Shown here: positions 1 to 11,508 of the stretch, one piece after another | How the letters are laid out: the number at the start of each line of letters is the position of its first letter | Position numbering within the stretch: the first letter of the stretch is position 1 | Virus record (IMG/VR): IMGVR_UViG_2681813225_000024 | Location: 1 to 11,508 of that record | Direction: 5' to 3' (one strand) | Length of the DNA stretch: 11,508 nucleotides | Source: a virus | Lineage: Duplodnaviria > Heunggongvirae > Uroviricota > Caudoviricetes | Made by a program: the position numbers and the translations under genes | The notes under the pieces: model-generated | What the model saw: the letters and a program-made list of their open reading frames with translations, nothing else | What the model was told of the DNA's origin: nothing | The model's database searches: none

Positions 1-603
1 TTTCACACCTTCCAGCATGGTTTCGGGTTTTACCCCCTCATTCAAACGGGCTTTCCAGGCTTTGAAGGCTGCAGATTTTGAATTGCCACCAGCACGTTTG
101 GGGTATGCCAGCCATGCCTGCTCAAACTCCGGAGAGTATTCCGGTCGGTTTGAACGAACTCGCACAGACTCATCAGCAGATGCACCAACAGCTATTGGTT
201 CATTGACTGGTTCAAAAGAGTGACTGGTTCTGGGTGAATCTCCTGCACTACCCCCTGGTGCAACTCCTGCACTACCTGGTGAATTTGCTGCACCAGATAG
301 TGAATTATTTGCACTACCCCCTAGTGAATCTCCTGCACCATCCAGATGAAGGAGATAGATATTACTTGAGTTACCTTTTTCACCTTTCCGGGTGACTTTT
401 TTTACCAGCCCGGAATCACAAAGGGCCGCAATATGATTCATCACAGAACGTTTGCTAATCTCGCACTGATCAGCAATATGCTGGTAGCTGGGCCAGCACT
501 CACCCTGATCGCTGGCATTATCAGCCAGCTTGATCAGAACCAGTTTTCGCAATGGATTACCCACTCGAATTTTCATCGCTTTAACCATCAGCTCCATACT
601 CAT
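1..603 (-). CDS. Phage replication initiation protein, N-terminal helix-turn-helix domain plus Gly/Ser/Ala-rich linker; 3' end lies beyond window start (partial)
   Basis: Manual minus-strand translation from ATG at 603..601 is open to position 1 (201 codons, no stop); it is absent from the ORF track because no stop lies in the window. Begins MSMELMVKAMKIRVGNPLRKLVLIKLADNASDQGECWPSYQHIADQCEISKRSVMNHIAALCDSGLVKK, which resembles the HTH domain found at the N-terminus of phage replication initiators. ATG overlaps the upstream gene stop as ATGA (coupling). It is the last gene of the PR-like operon. Confidence 0.7.
   Translation of the reverse strand, partial: MSMELMVKAMKIRVGNPLRKLVLIKLADNASDQGECWPSYQHIADQCEISKRSVMNHIAALCDSGLVKKVTRKGEKGNSSNIYLLHLDGAGDSLGGSANNSLSGAANSPGSAGVAPGGSAGDSPRTSHSFEPVNEPIAVGASADESVRVRSNRPEYSPEFEQAWLAYPKRAGGNSKSAAFKAWKARLNEGVKPETMLEGVK
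225..350. repeat. Imperfect tandem repeats (~21-24 bp units) inside the replication gene, encoding a low-complexity linker (GDSLGGSANNSLSGAANSPGSAGVAPGGSAGDSP)
   Basis: Plus strand shows reiterated units such as ggtgaatctcctgcactaccccct / ggtgcaactcctgcactacct / ggtgaatttgctgcacca / agtgaatctcctgcacca; the reading frame is maintained through them. Confidence 0.6.
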
Positions 604-836
604 GCTGCACCTCCGAGATGCTTCATGTTTTTTCCGGAGCGAAAGGTTATAAGCGGCATACTGACGCGGTAATTACGGCCCAGCGGTTCACAAATCACCT
701 TCTGACATTCACGGTCAACCAGGCTAACACGTAGAACATGCCCTGCAGGCGTGGTGTACCACTGCCCAACTGTAGGAATTGATGTTTTTTTACGCTGAAA
801 TAAACGGTAAATATTGAGGATCAACGGATTAAGCAT
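600..836 (-). CDS. Hypothetical small phage protein (78 aa)
   Basis: ORF track; ATG at 836..834; its stop overlaps the replication gene ATG (ATGA) and its start overlaps the upstream gene stop (ATGCTTAA), giving translational coupling within the operon. No recognisable motif. Confidence 0.45.
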   Translation of the reverse strand: MLNPLILNIYRLFQRKKTSIPTVGQWYTTPAGHVLRVSLVDRECQKVICEPLGRNYRVSMPLITFRSGKNMKHLGGAA

Positions 837-1473
837 GACGATGCCCTCCGCTGATATTCAGGAGACGGTGAATATGAAAATTAGCCTTATCCGCCAGACG
901 AATACGTTCAGCCTGCAAGTTAAGAAGGGTTTCTACCAGAACCTGATGCGCCTGCGGATCCGAAAGAGTTACCTTGCGCAGAGCACGTAGTGCAGTTGTT
1001 ACATAACTGAGTTTATGTAAGTCTTCATCATTCAGACGAGTGAGGGCTGGGACAGTAGCCATGATGGCAGCCTCCTTGATCGGTGAAATACTTCCACCAC
1101 CGGAAACGCCAATTTCGCTGGTGGTGAACTGAACGGGGTTGGCGTAACCGGTGATCAAGGAAACCGGCGCATCTTTCGATGCCCCCGCCCAGCCCACCAT
1201 AACTTTGATGTGAGCAAATGCGGACGATAAAAAAGACGCTGGCGCGTCATATATCGCCTTGATCAATTCCAGGACGCCAATCCCGGCACCCGCTTTATAA
1301 GGTGCCTGAACAGTGTAACGTCCCGGAATGGCAGAATCAATGTGCTGGTGGTCCTTCACACTCAACAAAATCACGCCTGAATTTCCACAAAGGACTAAAG
1401 CACTCATGCGGGTAGTCTTTGCGAAGATAGATAACGCGCTGTGTTTCTGGTTCCCAACGAATAACATGGACAT
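829..1473 (-). CDS. Hypothetical phage protein; start uncertain (ORF opens at TTG 1518; ATG at 1473 has RBS-like AAGAGGG just upstream)
   Basis: ORF track 829..1518, 229 aa. Sequence looks protein-like (ALVLCGNSGVILLSV, GVSGGGSISPIKEAAIMATVPALTRL). Its 5' part overlaps the upstream 109-aa ORF out of frame, so the start or the gene integrity is unresolved. Confidence 0.4.
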   Translation of the reverse strand: MSMLFVGNQKHSALSIFAKTTRMSALVLCGNSGVILLSVKDHQHIDSAIPGRYTVQAPYKAGAGIGVLELIKAIYDAPASFLSSAFAHIKVMVGWAGASKDAPVSLITGYANPVQFTTSEIGVSGGGSISPIKEAAIMATVPALTRLNDEDLHKLSYVTTALRALRKVTLSDPQAHQVLVETLLNLQAERIRLADKANFHIHRLLNISGGHRHA

Positions 1474-1666
1474 AAAGCCCTCTTCCGTCACGAAACCAGC
1501 GGTTAAGTTCCCGCACAACTCGCCCCCCCACAGTCAGGTAAAGTTCTCTGTGGTTACTTACAGCCAGGTGATTTGGTAATCTGCATTCATGCCGTAACAA
1601 CAGGTGTTCAGCGACACTGACCACCAGCTGTTGCGACAAACGGTTATTTGCCGTTAAACTGTTCAT
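1337..1666 (-). CDS. Hypothetical phage protein (109 aa)
   Basis: ORF track; ATG at 1666..1664 overlaps the stop of the upstream CII-like gene (ATGA); GGAG-containing RBS about 10 nt upstream. No recognised family. Confidence 0.45.
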   Translation of the reverse strand: MNSLTANNRLSQQLVVSVAEHLLLRHECRLPNHLAVSNHRELYLTVGGRVVRELNRWFRDGRGLYVHVIRWEPETQRVIYLRKDYPHECFSPLWKFRRDFVECEGPPAH

Positions 1667-2226
1667 GCGTTAGTTTCTCCACAGACACAAAACGCCACGA
1701 CGCCCGGAGCTGCACACTCGCGGGCGTCACTCTTTTCTGGAGCGCAAAAGATTTTGTAGACCAGTGCTGCATGCTCTTGGAGCTTCGAAATTGACAGATA
1801 CAACTCATCATTAATTGCTGTCTGCTCGTGTGGCTCCACGACCCCATCTTCGATTGCCGAACGAATCTGCTTTGAGTAATTCCCGATCTGTTCGATGACT
1901 TCCAGCAGGCGCTGGTTTATATCGGCGTTCTCTACTTCCTCAATTTCAGGAAGCGATACGAACACCCCACCAGCAGACTGTGCGACAGCATCCGCAATGT
2001 AGTGAGTGCCAGCCGCGCGCTGTAAAACCATTGCCCATCCCAGCGGGAAAATCTGATCGCCATCGGCACGAAGGCGGTTAAATAATGCGTTCTCTGTTAC
2101 ATCCAGCCAGTCAGCTGCTTCAGCGTAACCACCCGGCAACGCTGCGATAGTTTTTCTGACAGCTTTCACGTACCACTCAGGCTGTTTTTCTACTTTCCAG
2201 TGATACTTACCCACGGTTAGCCTCAT
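1663..2226 (-). CDS. Putative CII-like / YdaT-like early regulatory protein (about 183-187 aa)
   Basis: ORF track; sits immediately downstream of the Cro-like gene, the position CII holds in lambdoid phages and YdaT holds after YdaS. Alternative GTG start at 2214 has GAGG 6 nt upstream. The family call rests on synteny and weak recollection, not on a verified motif. Confidence 0.5.
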   Translation of the reverse strand: MRLTVGKYHWKVEKQPEWYVKAVRKTIAALPGGYAEAADWLDVTENALFNRLRADGDQIFPLGWAMVLQRAAGTHYIADAVAQSAGGVFVSLPEIEEVENADINQRLLEVIEQIGNYSKQIRSAIEDGVVEPHEQTAINDELYLSISKLQEHAALVYKIFCAPEKSDARECAAPGVVAFCVCGETNA

Positions 2227-2257
2227 CGTTCTGTGGTTAAAAATTGAAGGTGTTCTG

Positions 2258-2458
2258 TTAATCTTTCGGATAGATATCCGGTCTTAAGTCAGATTTCGTA
2301 ATTGCACCTGACGTGCATTGCTCAAGTTTTTTCGCCAGCACAAAACTGGCTTTTTTATAACCATTGAAAACCAGCCGTAAGTAGCCAGGTGTTGAGCCAA
2401 CTTTTCCGGCCAACTCGCCCTGCTGTTCTTTGGTTAAAGAGTCCCAATACGCTTTCAT
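2258..2458 (-). CDS. Cro-like HTH regulator (YdaS/Cro family), 66 aa from ATG 2458
   Basis: ORF track frame 2258..2563; internal ATG at 2458 gives MKAYWDSLTKEQQGELAGKVGSTPGYLRLVFNGYKKASFVLAKKLEQCTSGAITKSDLRPDIYPKD, a typical small Cro/YdaS-type HTH. AAGG RBS about 10 nt upstream. Divergent from the CI-like gene across an operator-bearing intergenic region. Confidence 0.65.
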   Translation of the reverse strand: MKAYWDSLTKEQQGELAGKVGSTPGYLRLVFNGYKKASFVLAKKLEQCTSGAITKSDLRPDIYPKD

Positions 2459-2464
2459 ACAATA

Positions 2465-2531
2465 TGTACCTTCAGTATACATATTACATGATTGAAATGA
2501 ACCTTCAAGATACTTGTACCTTATCGGTACA
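2465..2531. promoter_or_regulatory. OR-like operator cluster: three 17-bp sites fitting TGTAC-N7-GTACA, with divergent promoters for cro-like and cI-like genes
   Basis: Sites read directly: 2465-2481 TGTACCTTCAGTATACA; 2498-2514 TGAACCTTCAAGATACT; 2515-2531 TGTACCTTATCGGTACA (perfect palindromic half-sites). They lie between the cro-like start (2458, minus) and the cI-like start (2549, plus). Confidence 0.5.
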
Positions 2532-2548
2532 AAGGTTTTAATTTCGTT

Positions 2549-3223
2549 ATGAAAACAATCCATGACATCCGGCGGTCTAACGCCAGAAACCTGAGAGATG
2601 GTGTTGGCGGAAATTCATCCTTTGCCACCATGATTGATCGCGAGCCAACCCAGACCAGTAGGTTTATGGGGGATGGCGCTACTAAAAATATCGGTGACAG
2701 CATGGCACGGCACATCGAAAAATGTTTCGACCTGCCTGTCGGATGGCTTGATCAAGAACACCAGACAACGAACATCACAAAAAAACCTGATGTTTCAATC
2801 ACTAACAAACAAATAACGTTAGTCCCTGTCATATCATGGGTACAGGCCGGAGCATGGAAAGAAGTTGGCTATTCTGAGGTTGATTTGAGCACAGCAGAAA
2901 CGTATCCCTGCCCTGTCCCCTGTGGCGAAATGACTTATATCTTGCGGGTGATTGGTGATTCAATGATTGATGAGTACCGCCCTGGAGACATGATTTTTGT
3001 TGATCCCGAAGTCCCTGCCTGCCACGGTGACGACGTTATTGCATTGATGCACGATACAGGCGAAACCACCTTCAAGCGATTGATAGAAGATGGAACACAG
3101 CGTTATCTCAAAGCATTAAACCCAAACTGGCCTGAGCCTTACATTAAGATTAACGGTAATTGCTCTATAATTGGTACAGTGATTTTCTCGGGAAAACCAA
3201 GAAGATACACAATAAAGGTCTAA
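2549..3223 (+). CDS. CI/LexA-like prophage repressor (N-terminal HTH, C-terminal S24 peptidase autocleavage domain), 224 aa
   Basis: ORF track. C-terminal region has the S24 hallmarks: GDSM (Ser nucleophile) in RVIGDSMIDEYRPGDMIFVD and a downstream Lys in TTFKRL. The N-terminus is HTH-like. Weak RBS, as is common for cI genes. Confidence 0.85.
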   Translation: MKTIHDIRRSNARNLRDGVGGNSSFATMIDREPTQTSRFMGDGATKNIGDSMARHIEKCFDLPVGWLDQEHQTTNITKKPDVSITNKQITLVPVISWVQAGAWKEVGYSEVDLSTAETYPCPVPCGEMTYILRVIGDSMIDEYRPGDMIFVDPEVPACHGDDVIALMHDTGETTFKRLIEDGTQRYLKALNPNWPEPYIKINGNCSIIGTVIFSGKPRRYTIKV

Positions 3224-3235
3224 TCAATATTTATG

Positions 3236-3260
3236 AACCTGCTTCGGCAGGTTTTTTTAT
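3236..3260 (+). terminator. Rho-independent terminator downstream of the repressor gene
   Basis: Stem ACCTGC (3237-3242) / GCAGGT (3247-3252), loop TTCG, followed by a T7 run (3252-3258). Confidence 0.7.
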
Positions 3261-3262
3261 AC

Positions 3263-3291
3263 TTGACAATGTACTCATGAGATACATAACG
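3263..3291 (+). promoter_or_regulatory. PL-like early-left promoter with overlapping OL-like operator
   Basis: Perfect -35 TTGACA at 3263-3268; weak -10 candidate CATAAC about 16 bp downstream. The 17-bp site TGTACTCATGAGATACA (3270-3286) has the same TGTAC-N7-ATACA architecture as the OR sites. Confidence 0.4.
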
Positions 3292-3708
3292 TATCCAAAA
3301 GAAACATGGGGCAGGCAAGATTCAAACAAAATTTGGTTGTAACACGGCGTATGGCACATGCGTCGTTAGCGGTCTGGGGACGTTAAAGGGGACAATCCAC
3401 TCCTTGCTCGGGCAAACAAACCAGGTAGCCGGAATGTGCAAGTCAATGATGATGCTGATAAGACGCCTAACCAGCGTGGCGATCCGGTTTGACGCCTGGG
3501 AAGAGACCAGGGTGCAACGATGAGGGCATTTATGGAGCCGCGACAAAGTGTGGTGCCGTAACTGGCTAAGTGCTCTCAGCGTTGTGGTCATCCGCGAAAT
3601 GGCGCGGCGGTAAGTATGGCTGGGTTACTCTTTCCCCGTTGAGGACACCGGATTGTCAGGTTGACCATACGCCTGAGTGACAACCCCACCACAACAGCCA
3701 CTGCTTTG

Positions 3709-3755
3709 GCGGTACCAGTTTGTACACTTGCTTCCGGCTGGTACCGCTCTTTTTA
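3709..3755 (+). terminator. Terminator-like hairpin in the early-left leader
   Basis: 10-bp stem GCGGTACCAG (3709-3718) / CTGGTACCGC (3738-3747) followed by TCTTTTT. Confidence 0.4.
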
Positions 3756-3756
3756 C

Positions 3757-3845
3757 AAAACAGAGAAGAGCATCACCGGACGACGGGCTCATAACCCAAT
3801 CCATCCGGGCGGCTGCCACCGCAGGTGTTCTTCTCTGTTTTGTGG
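3757..3845 (+). terminator. Second long hairpin (13-bp perfect inverted repeat at base) immediately upstream of the first early gene RBS
   Basis: AAAACAGAGAAGA (3757-3769) is exactly complementary to TCTTCTCTGTTTT (3829-3841), enclosing a 59-nt GC-rich segment; ends in a U-run. Confidence 0.35.
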
Positions 3846-3891
3846 AGAAACCAACCGACCTTGCAGGGTCGATATGATGAGGAGCAGCAAA

Positions 3892-4254
3892 ATGGCTAGC
3901 GAACGCAGTACTGATGTGCAGGCATTTATCGGGGAGTTGGACGGCGGCGTATTTGAAACCAAAATCGGCGCTGTTCTCAGTGAAGTCGCTTCCGGTGTGA
4001 TGAACACGAAAACCAAAGGTAAGGTCTCACTCAACCTGGAAATCGAACCATTTGATGAGAACCGTGTGAAAATCAAACACAAACTCTCATATGTTCGCCC
4101 GACTAACCGCGGGAAAATTTCCGAAGAAGACACCACCGAAACGCCGATGTATGTCAATCGCGGTGGTCGCCTGACTATTCTGCAGGAAGACCAGGGACAA
4201 TTACTGACTCTTGCCGGTGAACCTGACGGAAAACTCCGCGCAGCAGGTCATTAA
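3892..4254 (+). CDS. yfdP: YfdP-like conserved prophage early protein (120 aa)
   Basis: ATG at 3892 preceded by GAGGAG with 7-nt spacing; lies in the ORF track frame 3661..4254. Length and position directly upstream of a YfdQ-like gene match the CPS-53 yfdPQRS order as I recall it. Symbol assigned by synteny, not verified. Confidence 0.5.
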   Translation: MASERSTDVQAFIGELDGGVFETKIGAVLSEVASGVMNTKTKGKVSLNLEIEPFDENRVKIKHKLSYVRPTNRGKISEEDTTETPMYVNRGGRLTILQEDQGQLLTLAGEPDGKLRAAGH

Positions 4255-4318
4255 TACGTTATTAATAAACTGATTATTTATCGCATCACTGAATATCTTT
4301 ATATAGTGAGGACTTATT

Positions 4319-5143
4319 ATGTCTCAGAACTTAGACGCAACCGCAATTAATCAAATCCATGCCCTTATTTCTGCTCAGGGTGTTAATGAAATTATCAGTA
4401 AGATTGGTGCCGATGCTGTGGCATTGCCTGAGAATTTCCGCATTCATGATCTGGAAAAATTTAATTTAAATCGTTTCCGTTTCCGTGGTGCGCTTTCCAC
4501 TGCCAGCATCGATGACTTTACCCGTTATTCTAAAGATCTTGCAGATGAAGGTACCCGCTGCTTTATCGATGCCGATAATATGCGTGCCGTCAGTGTGCTT
4601 AACCTGGGTACTATTGATGAGCCAGGTCACGCAGATAACACTGCCACTCTCAAACTGAAAAAGACAGCACCGTTCTCTGCTCTGTTATCTGTTAATGGCG
4701 AGCGTAACTCCCAGAAGTCACTGGCAGAATGGATTGAAGACTGGGCCGACTACCTTGTGGGCTTTGATGCTAATGGTGACGCTATTCAGGCAACAAAAGC
4801 GGCTGCGGCAGTCCGTAAAATCACGATTGAAGCAAACCAGACCGCTGATTTTGAAGATAATGACTTCAGCGGCAAACGCTCCCTGATGGAGTCTGTCGAA
4901 GCGAAGACCAAAGACATTATGCCAGTGGCATTTGAATTTAAATGCGTTCCGTTTGAAGGCCTTAAAGAACGTCCGTTTAAATTACGCCTCAGCATTATCA
5001 CTGGCGATCGTCCTGTACTGGTTCTGCGCATTATTCAGCTGGAAGCGGTGCAGGAAGAAATGGCTAACGAATTTCGTGATCTGCTTGTTGAGAAATTTAA
5101 AGACAGCAAAGTAGAAACCTTTATTGGTACTTTCACCGCCTGA
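4319..5143 (+). CDS. yfdQ: YfdQ-like protein (DUF2303 family), 274 aa
   Basis: ORF track; AGGA RBS about 9 nt upstream; size and sequence character consistent with E. coli CPS-53 YfdQ; followed by YfdR- and YfdS-like genes in the same order. Confidence 0.65.
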
Positions 5144-5155
5144 TTTCATTACTGC

Positions 5156-5177
5156 AAATGCCCCTGCGGGGGCATTT
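5156..5177 (+). terminator. Terminator-like hairpin after the yfdQ-like gene
   Basis: 9-bp stem AAATGCCCC (5156-5164) / GGGGCATTT (5169-5177), loop TGCG; the U-tract is short, so this may be an attenuator or RNA stability element. Confidence 0.35.
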
Positions 5178-5270
5178 ATGGAAACATAATTTACTCAATA
5201 ATCGCCAGATGGTGATGGCTTCCTTTTACCAGAATTCAGCGCGGTGCAGCGCATATACGTGGAGAACAAA

Positions 5271-5807
5271 ATGTCATTTATTAAAACTTTTTCCGGGAAG
5301 CATTTTTATTATGACAGGATAAATAAAGACGACATCGTGATTAACGATATCGCGGTTTCCCTTTCAAATATCTGTCGCTTTGCAGGACATCTTTCACACT
5401 TCTACAGCGTCGCCCAACATGCGGTGCTTTGCAGCCAGCTGGTACCGCAGGAATTTGCTTTTGAAGCGTTAATGCATGATGCAACAGAAGCATATTGCCA
5501 GGACATCCCCGCACCACTGAAACGCCTTCTTCCTGACTATAAACGGATGGAAGAAAAAATAGACGCCGTAATCCGTGAGAAATACGGGTTACCTCCTGTT
5601 ATGAGCACGCCAGTGAAATATGCCGATCTCATTATGCTGGCAACCGAACGCCGCGATCTCGGGCTTGATGATGGCTCTTTCTGGCCTGTACTGGAAGGTA
5701 TCCCGGCGACAGAGATGTTCAAAGTTATTCCACTGTCACCAGGCCATGCCTACGGGATGTTTATGGAACGTTTTAACGAGTTATCGGAGTTACGCAAATG
5801 CGCATGA
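5271..5807 (+). CDS. yfdR: HD-domain phosphohydrolase, YfdR-like 5'-deoxynucleotidase (178 aa)
   Basis: ATG at 5271 with GGAGA RBS 5 nt upstream (track ORF opens at GTG 5244). HD motif context in AQHAVLCSQL...ALMHDATEAYCQDIP. Size matches YfdR. Confidence 0.65.
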   Translation: MSFIKTFSGKHFYYDRINKDDIVINDIAVSLSNICRFAGHLSHFYSVAQHAVLCSQLVPQEFAFEALMHDATEAYCQDIPAPLKRLLPDYKRMEEKIDAVIREKYGLPPVMSTPVKYADLIMLATERRDLGLDDGSFWPVLEGIPATEMFKVIPLSPGHAYGMFMERFNELSELRKCA

Positions 5808-6160
5808 ATGTTTTCGAAATGGAAGGGTTTCTTCGCGGGAAATGTGTACCGCGAGATCTGAAAGTGAACGAAACAAATGCTGAGTACCTGGTACGTAAAT
5901 TCGATGCGCTTGAAGCTAAATGTACGGCACTGGAAAACAAAATAATACCAGTGTCAGCTGAACTGCCACCAGCAAATGAAAGTGTTCTGTTATTTGATGC
6001 TAACGGAGAAGGCTGGCTAATTGGCTGGCGTTCTCTCTGGTACACCTGGGGACAAAAAGAAACCGGAGAATGGCAGTGGACATTTCAGATCGGGGACCTT
6101 GAAAACGTCAATATCACTCACTGGGCAGTAATGCCGAAAGCACCGGAGAATAAGAAATGA
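5798..6160 (+). CDS. yfdS: YfdS-like protein (120 aa)
   Basis: ORF track; start overlaps the yfdR-like stop; GGAG 8 nt upstream; size and synteny match YfdS. Confidence 0.55.
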   Translation: MRMNVFEMEGFLRGKCVPRDLKVNETNAEYLVRKFDALEAKCTALENKIIPVSAELPPANESVLLFDANGEGWLIGWRSLWYTWGQKETGEWQWTFQIGDLENVNITHWAVMPKAPENKK

Positions 6161-6360
6161 GCGTGATAAAAACTCATACAGGAATTGTTATCACCCGAGA
6201 CGGTCCGCAGGTAAAAAAACTGCACCAGACAAAGCGGATGTGGGTCGTCGGAAAAAACGAGTTTTACCGCAAAGAAACCGGACGCCGCCACTTTGCAGAA
6301 AATACGCGCCGCCGACTGCTGATCGACAGCATCAAGCCTATCGAGGTGAAGCATGTTTAA
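6157..6360 (+). CDS. Hypothetical small basic protein (67 aa)
   Basis: ORF track; ATGA overlap with the preceding stop; GGAG 8 nt upstream. Confidence 0.45.
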   Translation: MSVIKTHTGIVITRDGPQVKKLHQTKRMWVVGKNEFYRKETGRRHFAENTRRRLLIDSIKPIEVKHV

Positions 6361-6592
6361 ACAGAACGAAAAATCTATCGCTCAAATTGCTGAGTATATC
6401 CCGCGTGCGTGCCGGGGTATGCAGTTGCAGGAAGCCAAAGCGCGCCTGGAGAAAAAAATTGCGCTCTATATCGATGACGGCTGTGATGCTGCCGTTCTTA
6501 ACGCAGCGTTCGCGCCAGCTCTTAACAGTCATACGCGGGAGTCTTTTTTTTCGCGCATCGCAGCGCAGATCCGTAAAGGAGGCAACCAGTGA
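6353..6592 (+). CDS. Hypothetical protein (79 aa)
   Basis: ORF track; start overlaps the previous stop; GAGG RBS upstream; protein-like composition. Confidence 0.45.
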   Translation: MFKQNEKSIAQIAEYIPRACRGMQLQEAKARLEKKIALYIDDGCDAAVLNAAFAPALNSHTRESFFSRIAAQIRKGGNQ

Positions 6593-7143
6593 GCGAGATT
6601 AACTATCAGGCTCTGCGACTGGCGGCAGAAAATGCAACACCAGGCGAATGGTGTGCTGATGACTACCATGGAGTAATTGCCGATGCCGGACTGAACGCCA
6701 ATTACTACATAGCATCATGCTCAGGACCAGATAATCGCGCCAATAAACGATTCATAGCCGCCGCCAATCCTGCCACCGTCTTGGCGCTGCTGGATGAGCT
6801 GGAAGCAGCAGAGAAGCGAAACGCTGAATTACAAAGCGAGAATGCATACATCCGCAACCGGTACAAAGAACTGGACCTATTAATCGGGAAAAATATTCTG
6901 GTCATGCAGGCTGCCATTATCGAATGGCAGGCAACTGGCGACGCTAAGAGCGGACTGGCATGGATTTATAACACACTGTTTGGCCCTGGCGAATTACCGG
7001 ACGAATCTGAGAAAGATGCTCAGGCCTACTTTAATCGCAAATATGCACCGATTGACGAAAAGCTTATGGCGCTTCACAAGTGGTTTTGGGAACAAAGTGA
7101 AGCCGAGCGCGCCGCCGCCAACATTGGTGTGAAGGGGAAGTGA
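6589..7143 (+). CDS. Ead/Ea22-like family protein (184 aa)
   Basis: ORF track; GTG start overlapping the upstream stop (GTGA) with AAAGGAGG 7 nt upstream. N-terminal LRLAAENATPGEW and a coiled-coil-like middle region are typical of Ea22-like early-left proteins. Confidence 0.6.
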   Translation: MSEINYQALRLAAENATPGEWCADDYHGVIADAGLNANYYIASCSGPDNRANKRFIAAANPATVLALLDELEAAEKRNAELQSENAYIRNRYKELDLLIGKNILVMQAAIIEWQATGDAKSGLAWIYNTLFGPGELPDESEKDAQAYFNRKYAPIDEKLMALHKWFWEQSEAERAAANIGVKGK

Positions 7144-7144
7144 G

Positions 7145-7336
7145 ATGAACGGACAAATCTCAATTGTTCGACCGGGAGCATGTGACGATTGCGAGATACG
7201 AATGATTATTCGTCTGGCGATGGGGAAAACAATAACTGCTCTCATTACTCCAGAAAATCTCGCATTAGCATTAACAGGAAAGTCAGACCTGCCAGTAGAG
7301 CTAAAGCTGCGAAATGTTGAGATTAAGGTGAAATAG
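7145..7336 (+). CDS. Hypothetical small protein (63 aa)
   Basis: ORF track; starts 1 nt after the upstream stop; purine-rich RBS. Confidence 0.4.
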   Translation: MNGQISIVRPGACDDCEIRMIIRLAMGKTITALITPENLALALTGKSDLPVELKLRNVEIKVK

Positions 7337-7338
7337 CT

Positions 7339-8346
7339 ATGACCACTATTACCAAAGAGCGACTGCTGACAATCAAGCAGTGGCGCGAAACATACGGACC
7401 TGGTAGCAACGTTGTACTGCCAGCAGAAGAAGCGGAAGAACTGGCACGGATTGCACTGGCATCATTGGAAGCAGATCCAGTTAAACGAGTTAACTCAGAT
7501 CAGATGCACCGAGTCTGCTTAGAAGCTAATCGCTATTTAGATAAATATGACGCGATGGCGAAAGAGGTAAATAAGTTGCTTGGACGCATCGCCCCGCCAG
7601 CGCCAGTATTTAACGGCGAATACGGTGACGCATATCAGGGCGCTCGTGAAGACCTGTCCATCTGGAAACGGCGAGCGCTTGAAGCTGATGAGCACGTTCG
7701 GCGACTGGAGCAAATCAATGACCACATGGTGAAAGAGGCGCAGGGAGAATCACGCATGGGCGAGCCTGTAATACGTGAGCCAGCACCGGTAGTGCCTGAA
7801 GAAGCAACTCCGGAAAACGTAGAAATGCTCTCTGGCTATGTTTCAACGTACAAATTAACCGATAGCGAGCGCGATATTGCTGCCGAAATATGGAACGCCT
7901 GCCGCGCCGCCATGCTTCAGGGTAGCCAACCTGTAAGCCAAACTTACAAGTTTCCAGTTAATACACCTTGCCAGGATGCGCCAGCCCATATCTGGCTGCA
8001 AACAGCTGGAGTATGGCCAGAAGATGGCGAGTTAAGCGAATTAACGTGGTGCAGCCACAATCAGCACCATGATGACACGCTATATGTTCGAGCTGACTTG
8101 GTAAATGGCAACTCTCCGGGAACTCCGGATAGTTGGATAAGCTGTAGTGATCAAATGCCTGAAAAGGGCCAGAACGTGCTTATTTCGGTGAATTTCGATA
8201 GCTCTCTGGTTGAACCGCTAATATGCTCCGCACGCTATACCGGAAGAACCTTTCGGCGCGGAGATGCAACGATTAAGCCGGGTAATGGTATTGAGCAAGC
8301 AACTCACTGGATGCCGCTACCGGAACCGCCGCAGGAGGTGAAGTGA
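7339..8346 (+). CDS. DUF551 domain-containing phage protein (335 aa)
   Basis: ORF track; C-terminal HWMPLPEPP is characteristic of DUF551 proteins in enterobacterial prophages; AAGGTGA RBS. Confidence 0.6.
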   Translation: MTTITKERLLTIKQWRETYGPGSNVVLPAEEAEELARIALASLEADPVKRVNSDQMHRVCLEANRYLDKYDAMAKEVNKLLGRIAPPAPVFNGEYGDAYQGAREDLSIWKRRALEADEHVRRLEQINDHMVKEAQGESRMGEPVIREPAPVVPEEATPENVEMLSGYVSTYKLTDSERDIAAEIWNACRAAMLQGSQPVSQTYKFPVNTPCQDAPAHIWLQTAGVWPEDGELSELTWCSHNQHHDDTLYVRADLVNGNSPGTPDSWISCSDQMPEKGQNVLISVNFDSSLVEPLICSARYTGRTFRRGDATIKPGNGIEQATHWMPLPEPPQEVK

Positions 8347-8918
8347 TGAACAACTTAATGATCGACCTTGAGACGATGGGGAAAAATAAGGATGCACCGA
8401 TCGTTTCCATTGGCGCGGTGTTCTTCACTCCAGAAACCGGAGACATCGGACAAGAATTCTATACGGTTGTTAGCCTGGAAAGTGCTATGGGGCAAGGAGC
8501 TACACCTGACGGCGATACCATCCTGTGGTGGTTGAAACAAAGCCCTGAAGCACGAGCTGCAATCTGTATTGATGATACTTTGTCGATCAGCGATGCTCTC
8601 TCAGAACTAAATCATTTCATTAACCGGCACGCAGCCAATACGAAATATTTAAAAGTCTGGGGTAACGGGGCCACCTTCGACAACGTAATTTTACGTGGAG
8701 CTTATGAGCGAGCAGGACAAATCTGCCCGTGGGCATACTGGAATGACCACGATGTACGCACGATCGTTACGCTTGGGCGTTCCATCGGATTCGACCCCAA
8801 AATGGACATGCCTTTCGATGGCGAACGGCACAACGCCCTGGCCGATGCCCGTCATCAGGCAAAATATGTTTCCGCTATCTGGCAGAAATTAATTCCTGCC
8901 ACCAGCACAGAATTATGA
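8346..8918 (+). CDS. DnaQ-like (DEDD) 3'-5' exonuclease, phage-type (190 aa)
   Basis: ORF track 8343..8918; ATG at 8346 overlaps the upstream stop, with GGAGGTGA RBS. N-terminal MIDLETMG matches exo motif I (D-x-E); later acidic and His residues fit the DEDDh pattern. Confidence 0.65.
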   Translation: MNNLMIDLETMGKNKDAPIVSIGAVFFTPETGDIGQEFYTVVSLESAMGQGATPDGDTILWWLKQSPEARAAICIDDTLSISDALSELNHFINRHAANTKYLKVWGNGATFDNVILRGAYERAGQICPWAYWNDHDVRTIVTLGRSIGFDPKMDMPFDGERHNALADARHQAKYVSAIWQKLIPATSTEL

Positions 8919-8954
8919 TTTTCCCGGGTGCAGCCGGTTTTGATGGAGAAAATT

Positions 8955-9236
8955 ATGAACACCTTGTTTTTACTGATGGCTGAATTCAATACCCCTAACA
9001 TTGAACTCTCAGCAGTTAGCCAAAAGTACTTTGGCATGAGTCCAGCCACGGCAGAAGCAAAAGCAAACGCTTGTAAGTTGCCCGTTCCAACATATCGCAT
9101 CGGCACATCACAAAAAGCAAAACGTTGCATCAATATTCAGGATCTTGCGGAATACATAGACAAAAGACGAGAAGAAGGACGTATCGAGTGGGAACAGGTC
9201 AGAACAAGCAAACAGAAGGGCAAAGAACATCACTAA
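8955..9236 (+). CDS. PrtN/AlpA-like small DNA-binding regulator, possibly excisionase-like (93 aa from ATG 8955)
   Basis: ORF track frame 8928..9236; ATG at 8955 with GGAG 7 nt upstream. MNTLFLLMAEF...PVPTYRIGTSQKAKRCINIQDLAEYIDKRREEG resembles pyocin-activator PrtN family proteins. Last gene before the bidirectional terminator. Confidence 0.55.
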   Translation: MNTLFLLMAEFNTPNIELSAVSQKYFGMSPATAEAKANACKLPVPTYRIGTSQKAKRCINIQDLAEYIDKRREEGRIEWEQVRTSKQKGKEHH

Positions 9237-9240
9237 AGAA

Positions 9241-9264
9241 AAAACCCGCCTAAAGGCGGGTTTT
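9241..9264. terminator. Bidirectional rho-independent terminator
   Basis: AAAACCCGCC-TAAA-GGCGGGTTTT; GC stem flanked by A-run and T-run, so it works on both strands. Ends the plus-strand early operon and the convergent minus-strand small ORF. Confidence 0.8.
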
Positions 9265-9283
9265 CAAAAAGCACCAGCTATGA

Positions 9284-9457
9284 TCATGCTGCTTTGCGAC
9301 GACGAAGCTTACCCTGCTGCTCTTTACCAGAGACAGTAGCGTGAGTGAACGCATTAGGAGCAGCCTTCATCAGAACTTCAACAGCAGCACCCATACCTGC
9401 GAATGCTTTCATTGTGTCGAACTTAACCTGTGGCTTGGTTGCTTTTTGATCTTTCAT
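9284..9457 (-). CDS. Small hypothetical protein, 57 aa (MKDQKATKPQVKFDTMKAFAGMGAAVEVLMKAAPNAFTHATVSGKEQQGKLRRRKAA)
   Basis: Not in the ORF track (under 60 aa); found by manual translation. ATG at 9457..9455 with GGGAG 6 nt upstream; stop TGA at 9286..9284 just before the bidirectional terminator. Lys-rich N-terminus, hydrophobic core, basic C-terminal tail. Confidence 0.5.
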   Translation of the reverse strand: MKDQKATKPQVKFDTMKAFAGMGAAVEVLMKAAPNAFTHATVSGKEQQGKLRRRKAA

Positions 9458-9653
9458 AGAAAACTCCCGAGACAGTAAAGGCGTCTCTAACCCTTTCTTT
9501 AAAGCTAGCTTGTTTCGCTAACTTATGCCAATCGATCATGTCGATTGGTGACATCGTTTCTTAGTAGTTTAAGCACAAAACGACTGCCATAGATGTACCT
9601 TTAAGGTAATCTGGACGGGTATCCTACAATTTGTAGACCCTTCTCGTCTATAC

Positions 9654-10190
9654 CTACTGAGCAAATTTAAGAAAGATATCCTGCAGCTCATCAATGACTG
9701 CCGACATCACATAACCGCACTGTTCCATGTGGAAACCAAAAGACTCGTAATACTGCACCAGTTCTGGTACTGGCTCTACAATGTGGACAACTTTACATTC
9801 AACAGCTTTACAAAATATAAAAGCACTCATAAGAGTGAGTAAAACCATGCGCCCTTTCAATGGGTGAGATTCATCTTCTCTAGAAAACCTTTCGATCATA
9901 TGGATACGAAAGATGTTTTCTTCAACCCCATAAACACAAATTGCTGCTCCTGATGGTATTCCCTGAACCCGACCTTGCTGAACAAGTTTTATACAGAACT
10001 CATACTTTTCTCTGGAGTTGCCATAGGTACTTAACGCATAGTCCCATTCAAGCTCACCATAGCCACCACACAGAATCTTGTAATCATCATCACTGAGCGG
10101 ACCAACAGCAAGAGGTAAGCCGACATGATCAATAATCAACTGGATATTGTTACGTACTGATTGACCTATCTCGTCCAGGGTAAGCATCAT
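9654..10190 (-). CDS. Hypothetical protein (178 aa) in AT-rich cargo; weak resemblance to a GNAT-like acyltransferase fold
   Basis: ORF track; tandem ATGs at 10190 and 10187 with GAGG upstream. Loose fit to a GNAT C-terminal pattern (IHMIERF...LKGRMVLLTLMSAFIFCKA...YYESFGF) but no clear Q/R-x-x-G-x-G/A acetyl-CoA motif. Visibly more AT-rich than the phage early genes. Confidence 0.5.
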   Translation of the reverse strand: MMLTLDEIGQSVRNNIQLIIDHVGLPLAVGPLSDDDYKILCGGYGELEWDYALSTYGNSREKYEFCIKLVQQGRVQGIPSGAAICVYGVEENIFRIHMIERFSREDESHPLKGRMVLLTLMSAFIFCKAVECKVVHIVEPVPELVQYYESFGFHMEQCGYVMSAVIDELQDIFLKFAQ

Positions 10191-10219
10191 GGCCTCTCAA
10201 GCGGAACACTAAAAGTCGC

Positions 10220-10225
10220 ATTATA
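10220..10225 (-). promoter_or_regulatory. Candidate -10 hexamer (TATAAT on minus strand) for the 178-aa gene
   Basis: Plus ATTATA at 10220-10225 is TATAAT on the minus strand, about 29 nt upstream of the ATG; no convincing -35. Confidence 0.3.
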
Positions 10226-10739
10226 TCTCATTCTTAAGCCGCGTATGGATTACACCTTGAAATGAAAACGCCGGGTTCCCAATAGGCTCCCACAGAGTGT
10301 ATAACTACTTGTTTTTCAAAAACGGTACATCCTATCGAGCATTGGTGCAACGCTAAACCGACCACTCCAGTGAACGTCAGTTTTTTCAGGCATTGCGCTG
10401 GTTTGGTTGATTTTTTGCATTTCAGAATTACCGTGCATTTTCAAATGTAGAGATTATTTTATCAATATATCATGGGGTTATGTTATTCAGCTTCACTGTT
10501 CAGGAGGCTCAATAGCGGGGTACTATACCATAACAACAGGAAGCGCCTGTCTCATTGCAAAAGAAAATTGAGATCCTCTCAAGGCATGAAGCTCTCACGA
10601 AGTGATGGAAATAATCTTATTAGCCGTTAACTTTGTTAAGGCCAATGATAAACAATCCAGGTTCGACGATAAATAAAAAATCACACATTAAACTCTGGTG
10701 ATATATCTCCCTGCTAATAGCATTGATAGAGAAAAAAGA

Positions 10740-10757
10740 ACCCAATAAATATTGGGT
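10740..10757 (-). terminator. Rho-independent terminator of the 235-aa gene
   Basis: Hairpin ACCCAAT-AAAT-ATTGGGT; on the minus strand it is followed by TCTTTTTTCTC, and it lies about 45 nt downstream of the stop at 10801-10803. Confidence 0.6.
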
Positions 10758-10800
10758 CCTTTTATATAATGCCTTCCATACTATCGAAGAACTTCACATA

Positions 10801-11508
10801 TTATTTCTCCGATTTAACCCCGAACAAATCATAAATTAATTTAGAAGTGTCTGTAAGTATTTTAATCTCTTCCTTTGAGGTTGGGTCAAACGACTTCGCG
10901 AAGCTAATTAATTGTGGTGCAGCATCTCGCATTTTGCTTAAAATATCAGGATCGAGCGTTCCTTCATTCACCAGATGTGACATCTTATCCAGATAGCCAT
11001 CAAAATTCATTTCTCCCCCATCAGCCAGACGCTTCATCTCTCCCAAGTACTTCTTCATATCACGTTGAGATAATTTTTCAAACTGAGCTTTCAGGTAGCT
11101 CTCATTATTTTCATTAATATACACTGTTTCTGATAAATCTGCGTAGGCACTAGAATATGAAAGTGAAATTAACAGCGAAGCAAATAATTTTAAGCTGTTG
11201 TCATCATGTTCCTGGCAGGCATTAACAAACGTTAAAAAACCAGAACCTATTGCTTGAAAATGTATATTCGCTAAAGGTTCATTATCCTTAGATTCCTCAT
11301 AAAATAGCTGAACCGTGGAGGGAAGGCCATTCTTAGTTTCTACATCAAAAGTACATTGTTCAATGGGAGTCGCATCTTTATTATCCCCAGGATTACATAT
11401 ACTATTAATCGCGAAATGAAAAATAGCCCGGTCAACAACTGATGCAATAAAGTCACGATCGTTTAAATCCTCATCAGTGCAATCGTCAATATACTTATTG
11501 ACCCACAT
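10801..11508 (-). CDS. Hypothetical acidic protein (at least 235 aa), AT-rich, unknown function; 5' end may extend beyond the window
   Basis: ORF track; the first in-window ATG sits exactly at the window edge (11508..11506), so the true start is uncertain. Long uninterrupted frame with coherent protein-like composition despite low GC; own terminator downstream. Confidence 0.5.
   Translation of the reverse strand: MWVNKYIDDCTDEDLNDRDFIASVVDRAIFHFAINSICNPGDNKDATPIEQCTFDVETKNGLPSTVQLFYEESKDNEPLANIHFQAIGSGFLTFVNACQEHDDNSLKLFASLLISLSYSSAYADLSETVYINENNESYLKAQFEKLSQRDMKKYLGEMKRLADGGEMNFDGYLDKMSHLVNEGTLDPDILSKMRDAAPQLISFAKSFDPTSKEEIKILTDTSKLIYDLFGVKSEK

Follow-up and report, generated by a model that had tools for sequence, protein, structure and literature searches.

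A predicted establishment promoter at the ymfT–ymfL junction of an SfV/e14-type prophage and a phage 186 CII-type assignment for YmfL

What do the two small regulatory genes encode that open an early operon in an 11,508-nucleotide stretch of Caudoviricetes DNA (IMG/VR record IMGVR_UViG_2681813225_000024, positions 1 to 11,508; hereafter the window), and on which promoter might they act? A preliminary description of this DNA, made from its letters and open reading frames (ORFs), had read the pair as a Cro/YdaS-like gene followed by a CII/YdaT-like gene, in the arrangement of ydaS and ydaT of the Rac prophage, and had noted that the Rac pair has been discussed both as a possible toxin–antitoxin-like module and as a Cro/CII-type regulatory pair. 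Here we report a computational analysis of the pair and of related loci in Enterobacterales. The reading that we favour, at a probability of roughly two in three, is that ymfT and ymfL make up the Cro/CII portion of the switch that governs immunity in an SfV/e14-type prophage, in which YmfL would act on an establishment promoter antisense to ymfT.

The ymfT–ymfL pair and its neighbours

Both ORFs of the pair exist at the coordinates first given for them, on the minus strand (2258–2458, 66 amino acids (aa) from an ATG, and 1663–2226, 187 aa from an ATG). They are real genes, because they have Pfam, PHROG and NCBIfam matches and because similar DNA is present in 3,050 of 5,426 complete E. coli genomes. 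Positions 600–3300 of the window are 100% identical to several E. coli chromosomes, in which the genes are annotated ymfK, ymfT and ymfL, and this segment is 97–98% identical to the DNA of phages 2H10, Ayreon and SfV (97% for SfV), the SfV counterparts being named cI, cro and orf36. YmfL shares 89% protein identity with YmfL of the K-12 e14 prophage. The pair is ymfT/ymfL of a common E. coli lambdoid prophage of the SfV/e14 type, an ordinary and already annotated Cro/CII part of its immunity switch (Table 1).

The start of the second gene had to be corrected. The ATG at 2226, which yields the 187-aa version, has no Shine–Dalgarno (SD) sequence, whereas the GTG at 2214 is preceded at 6 nucleotides (nt) by GAGG (2221–2224). 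Moreover, RefSeq and the SfV record carry ymfL in a 552-nt (183 aa) version, and of 76 related loci, 74 have GTG at the aligned position. We therefore regard the 183-aa protein encoded at 1663–2214 as the most likely product. The two genes are, as described earlier, the first of their operon: they are the first two leftward of a 90-bp operator region and diverge from the repressor gene. The claim that the second gene is coupled to those downstream is also correct, because the ymfL stop codon overlaps the start of the next ORF in the sequence ATGA (1663–1666).

Table 1 Features around the ymfT–ymfL junction (window coordinates)
Feature	Position	Strand	Description
77-aa ORF	829–1062	-	Strong SD AAGGAGG, complementary to C4 loop; overlaps start of next ORF (600–836)
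C4-type antisense RNA (P1/P7 immI type)	1117–1204	-	Rfam RF01695, 82.3 bits against 45
isrK-type small RNA	1229–1305	-	Rfam RF01394, 64.2 bits against 50; own terminator hairpin 1248–1235
109-aa ORF	1337–1666	-	ATG overlaps ymfL stop; C-terminal 59 aa correspond to DUF4222, RefSeq start GTG 1516
ymfL	1663–2214	-	183 aa; phage 186 CII-family regulator (by profile and predicted fold); conserved GTG start
Distal conserved box CCACGGTTA	2211–2219	+	Promoter positions about −61 to −53; its CAC complements the ymfL GTG start
Proximal conserved box CTGTGGTTA	2231–2239	+	Promoter positions about −41 to −33; ymfT–ymfL spacer
Predicted extended −10, TGt TAATCT	2256–2264	+	pE/pRE-like promoter, antisense through ymfT to ymfK; overlaps ymfT stop codon
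ymfT	2258–2458	-	66 aa; opens the early lytic operon; helix-turn-helix repressor resembling Cro; annotated 'cro' in SfV
Divergent operator/promoter region	2459–2548	.	90 bp; repeat search; 'putative operator region' in SfV
ymfK	2549–3223	+	CI-type prophage repressor: N-terminal DNA-binding part and S24/LexA-like self-cleavage domain
Terminator-like hairpin and T-run	3235–3254	+	Directly 3′ of ymfK; consensus scan; SfV annotates a putative rho-independent terminator there

The product of the divergent gene ymfK matches Pfam Peptidase_S24 (92.8 bits) and PHROG 4 (transcriptional repressor); RefSeq lists it as 'ymfK LexA family protein' and the SfV record as cI. No obvious SD sequence lies 5′ of its ATG. 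The operator region contains related 17-mers at 2464–2480 and 2497–2513, with TGTACCTT occurring again at 2515–2522, and an inverted repeat (2455–2468 and 2478–2491). A candidate pR on the minus strand, with −35 TTGAAG (2508–2503) and −10 TAATAT (2486–2481), was found in a relaxed promoter scan as a consensus match only. A standard scan called neither this promoter nor the antisense promoter described below, and both come from the relaxed scan and comparative evidence. The first protein of the pair had been called Cro/YdaS-like, and our searches point the same way. YmfT matches PHROG 35 (transcriptional repressor) at E 3e-15 and Rac YdaS by BLASTP at E 1e-5 (26% identity over 50 aa), it is named 'YdaS family' in RefSeq, and its score against Pfam YdaS_toxin (PF15943), 25.1 bits at E 1.5e-5, lies below the gathering score of 30.

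The 109-aa ORF that follows ymfL was considered as ymfM and rejected, there being no similarity to YmfM and no YmfM homologue in the window. The frame of this ORF and of its DUF4222 part is set by a C-run at 1523–1529 (G7 on the coding strand). Judged from the length of this run, the window has the SfV-type 278-aa 'orf37' in a rare, frameshifted form, because SfV has G6, one G fewer, and because G6 is found in at least 120 IMG/VR contigs as against two with G7. Farther along, loops of the C4-type RNA show complementarity to the leader of the 77-aa ORF and to its SD sequence, with a duplex energy of −70 kcal/mol compared with −44 ± 6 kcal/mol for shuffled sequences. Pairing of a C4 RNA with a leader and its SD sequence is the mode of control of P1 immI. 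Coupling continues from the 77-aa ORF to the ORF that follows it and on to the replication gene. The isrK- and C4-type RNAs fall inside an ORF annotated 'Ash family protein', and the Pfam Ash match (nt about 1036–1317) coincides with the RNA genes.

Family and fold of YmfL

Profile searches and structure prediction strongly support YmfL as a relative of phage 186 CII, with the same Pfam family, the same predicted fold and a helix-turn-helix in the same place. YmfL scores 54.8 bits against Pfam PF06892 (Phage_CP76, 'Phage regulatory protein CII (CP76)'; cut-off 26), over profile positions 5–141 of 146, and this is the sole Pfam family that it matches; 186 CII itself scores 163.6 bits. YmfL also matches the NCBIfam 'YmfL family putative regulatory protein' (170 bits) and PHROG 101 ('CII-like transcriptional activator'). 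In hhalign, a 57-sequence YmfL profile aligned with 186 CII at E 1.8e-5 and a probability of 78%, placing the predicted helix-turn-helix of YmfL (residues 29–48, nt 2071–2130) on that of 186 CII, which holds the V36/Q37 mutation sites (PMC7708051). The YmfL profile also finds the PDB entries 6vli, 6vpe and 6vmh, 'Regulatory protein CII', at E 0.009. The assignment depended on profile and fold methods: pairwise BLASTP of YmfL against 186 CII gave no match, and neither did phmmer with the single YmfL sequence against the PDB sequences.

The AlphaFold2 model of YmfL (pLDDT 86.6) has five short N-terminal helices followed by two long helices (residues 96–121 and 128–156) and a tail of low confidence (residues ~157–183, nt 1666–1746; pLDDT 53–61). 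A Foldseek search of the PDB with this model returned 186 CII at all of ranks 1 to 8 (6vli, 6vpe and 6vmh; probability 1.00, best E 4.6e-4), followed by generic helix-turn-helix proteins with E near 1. The target TM scores to 186 CII are 0.64–0.66 for the N-terminal domain and a moderate 0.44–0.57 at full length, and the relative orientation of the YmfL domains is therefore uncertain.

The second protein is thus CII-like both by position and by family, as had been proposed, and the profile search and structure prediction suggested as checks in the preliminary description separate the two families that it had joined: they support the family and fold of 186 CII and speak against those of YdaT. 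Its other remark, that a 187-aa protein is larger than a classical CII, needs the corrected start, and the resulting 183 aa are normal because YmfL is a relative of 186 CII (PF06892; 186 CII has 169 aa). The family of lambda CII (PF05269) was rejected for YmfL, whose only Pfam match is to PF06892. Of 11 one-mismatch matches to TTGC-N6-TTGC in the window, a total below chance expectation, none lies within 2100–2300.

There is little room for the reading of the pair as a YdaS/YdaT-type module, whether toxin–antitoxin-like or with a YdaT-family equivalent of CII, and we hold it to be hardly credible, although the gene order is the same as in racR–ydaS–ydaT, YmfT is distantly YdaS-like and ectopic expression of ydaS/ydaT has been reported to be toxic (PMC5917428, PMC5917430). 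YmfL has no match at E ≤ 0.01 to PF06254 (YdaT_toxin), the only Pfam family matched by Rac YdaT (44.7 bits). Its BLASTP comparison with YdaT gave E 14, and hhalign with the 57-sequence profile gave a probability of 0.6%. The YdaT structures 8bt1 and 3c4r, both contained in the PDB set, are absent from the top 50 Foldseek matches of YmfL (up to E = 6). Together, the Pfam, hhalign and fold results refute membership of YmfL in the YdaT family, and with it the earlier description of the second protein as YdaT-like. In addition, TTGATTN6AATCAA, the site bound by YdaT, has no match in the window at up to two mismatches, and YdaT is now described as a CII equivalent and not as a toxin (PMC9986795). 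A possible toxin–antitoxin-like function, also raised earlier, finds no more support than the family assignment did. None of the six proteins has a match among the PADLOC models, the window lacks a YmfM homologue, and the 89%-identical K-12 YmfL was over-expressed without filamentation: Ansari et al. cloned K-12 ymfL and ymfM separately and found normal cell length on expression of ymfL and filamentation on expression of ymfM (10.1101/2020.11.19.390815). The SOS-inducible division inhibitor of e14 is YmfM in that work (10.1101/2020.11.19.390815), and ymfL was rejected as the e14 division inhibitor SfiC because the literature assigns this role to YmfM.

Promoter-like architecture at the ymfT–ymfL junction

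We scanned one genome per species, using a 15-sequence alignment as the query, and found 80 loci in Enterobacterales, with YmfL identities of 46–95%. About 77 loci keep the same order of genes: next to a divergent repressor gene come a small Cro-like gene and ymfL, then a small gene of the YmfM-like and/or DUF4222 kind, and finally a gene for replication. Around ymfL, the repressor and Cro modules are swapped freely among YmfK-, RacR-, YmfT- and YdaS-like types. Identities of the YmfK-like repressors span 23–99%, RacR-like repressors occur in L012, L036 and L079, and the Cro genes include YmfT-like as well as YdaS-like ones. In some loci, such as L036, RacR-like and YdaS-like genes accompany a ymfL that occupies the slot held by ydaT in Rac. 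The YdaS–YdaT arrangement noted earlier thus stands as an analogy of position, but not as a statement about the family of the second protein.

An alignment of 75 loci revealed that the sense strand 5′ of ymfL carries AACCACAG (ACCACAG) exactly 16 nt before the GTG, with five positions invariant and two near-invariant. TAACC directly precedes the GTG, and the sequence farther upstream is unrelated between loci. Read on the opposite strand, this arrangement is CCACGGTTA-N11-CTGTGGTTA, in which the GGTTA cores have a spacing of 20 bp. The window contains a single GGTTA-N15-GGTTA, compared with 0.02 expected, and the GGTTA box pair is the sole perfect pair in the 37-kb SfV genome. The K-12 e14 locus has the same junction motif. 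The distant PF06892 members of mEp390, Klebsiella KpF5 and Pseudomonas phiCTX, each compared as a single sequence, gave no interpretable motif.

Beyond the proximal box, at a fixed offset of 20 nt on the antisense strand, 67 of 71 non-redundant loci have a TANNNT hexamer (54, 9 and 4 at three adjacent positions). At most other offsets this pattern occurs in 0–3 loci; counts of up to 27 are seen at a few offsets that fall within the conserved boxes or the coding region. In 49 of 70 loci, position −14 is a G. The −35 hexamer is poor, with just TT conserved (TTA... in the window), and the −10 hexamers conserve only T, A and T, their inner bases varying widely. A coding explanation of the boxes and the hexamer is excluded, because the stop codon of the upstream ORF ranges from −79 to +11, so that these elements are intergenic in some loci and lie within unrelated coding sequence in others. 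We rejected the Cro stop codon as the source of TA...T, since only 14 of 75 loci have it at −46 to −48.

These comparisons strongly support a conserved promoter-like architecture at the junction, antisense to ymfT and pointing at ymfK. Its layout suggests an activator-dependent establishment promoter, predicted to be of the pE/pRE type. YmfL is the predicted binder of the boxes, because no other DNA-binding protein remains linked to them. In L012 and L079, ymfL has been displaced by 0.45–0.75 kb through an insertion after its codon 3 and has a new ATG start; despite this displacement, the box motif is still found beside the Cro-like gene.

The switch that we propose would run as follows. After infection or derepression, transcription from pR would produce YmfT, followed by YmfL. 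The latter, probably oligomeric as 186 CII is, would bind both boxes and turn on the antisense promoter, whose transcript would pass antisense through ymfT into ymfK and supply a first burst of the CI-type repressor. The same antisense transcript would dampen Cro expression, as the transcripts of lambda pRE and 186 pE do. The predicted disordered C-terminal tail of YmfL may confer instability, as that of 186 CII does, the latter recruiting FtsH/RseP (PMC7708051). On balance, we lean slightly towards extending this proposal to a large group of SfV/e14-like enterobacterial prophages, in which YmfL-type proteins would be the activators of lysogeny establishment and two YRYGGTTA boxes exactly 20 bp apart, straddling the gene's own SD sequence and GTG, would switch on an undescribed promoter of the pE/pRE type with its −10 in or just after the upstream Cro-like gene.

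Several observations count against the proposed switch: pairwise BLASTP does not connect YmfL with 186 CII, the full-length TM scores are moderate, the geometry of the boxes is unlike that in 186, the −10 hexamers conserve little, and ymfK has no obvious SD sequence from which a pE transcript would be translated. The same elements could be read differently. YmfL might be a regulator with the 186 CII fold and no role in lysogeny, which would autoregulate through the boxes or activate some other promoter, while the antisense promoter would be constitutive or otherwise controlled. Boxes lying over the ymfL SD sequence and GTG suit autoregulation, and their geometry is unlike that of 186 pE. However, a −10 at a fixed offset, a G at −14 and a poor −35 are typical of an activator-dependent promoter; among the DNA-binding proteins, only YmfL is present or absent together with the boxes, the modules for Cro and CI being exchanged; and the boxes remain on the cro side where ymfL is displaced. 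We consider this alternative unlikely. A further explanation, which we judge quite improbable, is that the motif acts in RNA, a CCAC/GUGG hairpin hiding the ymfL GUG and limiting translation, with the −10-like hexamer being unrelated. CCAC and GUGG are each invariant and able to pair, the GTG start is itself conserved (74 of 76 loci), and minimum-free-energy folding pairs the GUG with the box in 41 of 75 sequences. Yet the folding energy is no better than that of shuffled sequences (mean z −0.26), and the consensus is a 4-bp stem with an 18-nt loop at −3 kcal/mol. Such a hairpin would also leave unexplained the fixed 16-nt spacing, the conservation of GGTTA, the TANNNT 20 nt away and the retention of the motif after displacement of ymfL. 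Nonetheless, part of the conservation of the boxes could be translational, because they overlap the SD region and start codon of ymfL.

Significance and comparison with known systems

The ymfT/ymfL pair is routine and already annotated, belongs to a very common type of E. coli prophage and brings no conceptual change. Its only part that seems undocumented is the establishment promoter predicted to depend on YmfL, for which the comparison of loci gives good support. K-12 records list YmfL as uncharacterized, and we found no experiment on YmfL binding, activation or lysogeny in the literature. The corrected family assignment implies that the lambdoid slot for 'CII function' can be filled by at least three unrelated proteins, namely lambda CII, YdaT and the 186-CII-like YmfL. 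For K-12 ymfL, the analysis yields a concrete prediction in the form of a defined promoter and two boxes at the ymfT–ymfL junction. If YmfL is indeed the activator, this would account for GTG being the start nearly everywhere and for the mosaic swapping of Cro and CI modules around a fixed ymfL–promoter unit, and it would give a function to the uncharacterized K-12 gene.

The apl–cII/pE region of phage 186 resembles the ymfT–ymfL locus in several respects. The CII family and fold are common to 186 CII and YmfL (PF06892; 6vli, 6vpe and 6vmh), cII is second in the early lytic operon after a small helix-turn-helix gene and diverges from cI, the CII site lies across the start codon of cII itself, and pE reads back through apl toward cI, the counterparts of this site and of pE in the window being predicted from sequence. 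The 20-bp spacing of the repeats and the disordered C-terminal tail, predicted for YmfL, are likewise similar. Unlike these features, the sequences have no detectable pairwise similarity, and the first gene of 186 encodes the excisionase-repressor Apl, whereas that of the present locus encodes a Cro/YdaS-type protein. The 186 sites are inverted ATGTTTG/CAAACAT half-sites centred at about −38, and those at the ymfT–ymfL junction are direct repeats of YRYGGTTA centred near −55 and −35. The site lies about 10 nt from the −10 in 186, compared with 20 nt from the proximal box to the −10 here. Furthermore, 186 is a P2-like phage, whereas the prophage in the window is of the lambdoid/SfV type.

The cro–cII/pRE arrangement of lambda shares the placement of the activator gene after cro, the use of direct repeats and the logic of the proposed circuit. 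It also shares an activator site at the 5′ end of the activator's own gene and an establishment promoter antisense to cro and reading into cI, both of which are predicted from sequence for the window. In contrast, the 97-aa lambda CII (PF05269) is unrelated to YmfL, no TTGC-N6-TTGC lies near ymfL, and no partner resembling lambda CIII was identified here.

The racR–ydaS–ydaT locus of Rac and CP-933P has the same gene order, with a distant YdaS likeness of YmfT and with YmfL in the ydaT slot. YdaT consists of a POU-type helix-turn-helix domain and one long helix, forms a tetramer through a four-helix bundle and binds TTGATTN6AATCAA (PMC9986795), whereas YmfL has no sequence, profile or fold match to it and the window has no YdaT site. 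The ymfK–ymfT–ymfL–ymfM locus of K-12 e14 differs from the window in what follows ymfL: e14 has ymfM there, whereas the window, as SfV, has the unrelated 109-aa/DUF4222 ORF and then the isrK/C4-type RNAs. Its ymfK, ymfT and ymfL genes are direct orthologues of those described here, with an 89%-identical YmfL and the same motif at the junction.

Exchange of proteins in the CII slot

In three of the related loci (L036, L012 and L079), ymfL lies alongside genes for a RacR-like repressor and a YdaS-like Cro protein, in the place occupied by ydaT in Rac. This combination shows that immunity regions swap unrelated proteins of the CII slot, the gene position behind the Cro-like gene, as modules. Two of these loci also carry an insertion immediately 3′ of ymfL codon 3 (L012, 2215-2990; L079, 2524-3000). 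It brings in further ORFs as well as a long inverted repeat that includes two opposed Shine–Dalgarno (SD) sequences. The insertion displaces ymfL, which starts there with ATG, and the AACCACAG...GTGGGTAAC motif, a conserved box pair at the ymfL 5′ end, still adjoins the Cro-like gene.

Reading frames and RNA genes downstream of ymfL

The homopolymer run at 1523-1529 consists of seven G residues on the coding strand of the window and of six in SfV; the six-G form occurs in at least 120 IMG/VR contigs, and the seven-G form in only two. The extra G splits the 278-aa orf37 of the SfV type in two: a 109-aa ORF, which combines the N terminus with the DUF4222 frame, and, separate from it, an 'Ash' ORF. 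As the GTG at 1516, the RefSeq start of a 59-aa DUF4222 protein, is located 7 nt downstream of the run, the run may double as the SD sequence of this protein.

The e14-type loci contain a conserved DUF4222 ORF of about 60 aa that lacks an annotation in K-12. It shares about 160 nt with the 3′ half of ymfM and is read in a different frame. Diverged loci keep both frames open, and the arrangement could represent either overlapping genes or a frameshift relationship.

According to Rfam, both an isrK-type small RNA and a C4-type antisense RNA are encoded within the 'Ash' ORF of the window (table below). Since the Pfam Phage_ASH match (approximately nt 1036-1317) covers the same stretch as these RNA genes, the ORF may for the most part be an RNA locus in translated form. 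The leader and SD sequence of a 77-aa ORF starting at 1062 are complementary to the C4 loops.

Coordinates of the features (window positions unless a locus is named)
Feature	Position	Strand	Remark
isrK-type small RNA	1229-1305	-	Rfam, 64 bits
C4-type antisense RNA	1117-1204	-	Rfam, 82 bits
'Ash family protein' ORF	829-1407	-	RefSeq name
Region of the DUF4222 ORF and ymfM	L008 3555-3913		K-12 e14 type; likewise in many other related loci
YmfL low-confidence C-terminal tail	1666-1746		residues ~157-183

Flanking regions and the YmfL tail

The ~670 bp past the ymfK terminator (3224-3890) contain no convincing ORF in this prophage, and are likely to harbour the leftward early promoter and its control elements; in SfV, the corresponding region is annotated with a second terminator and a small ORF, orf33. 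At the end of the left arm (~8928-10440; 16856-18339 in the related locus L001) lie a PrtN/excisionase-like gene, small ORFs and a truncated fragment of a tRNA-dihydrouridine synthase. The annotation shows no integrase gene between them, and at this end the prophage may thus be defective or have undergone rearrangement.

The C-terminal tail of YmfL bears the motif DARECAAPG..V/A..GETNA, which is also present in the otherwise distant homologues P0170 (34% identity) and P0246 (about 25%). The motif may serve as a portable degradation tag, by analogy with phage 186 CII, the tail of which recruits a protease.
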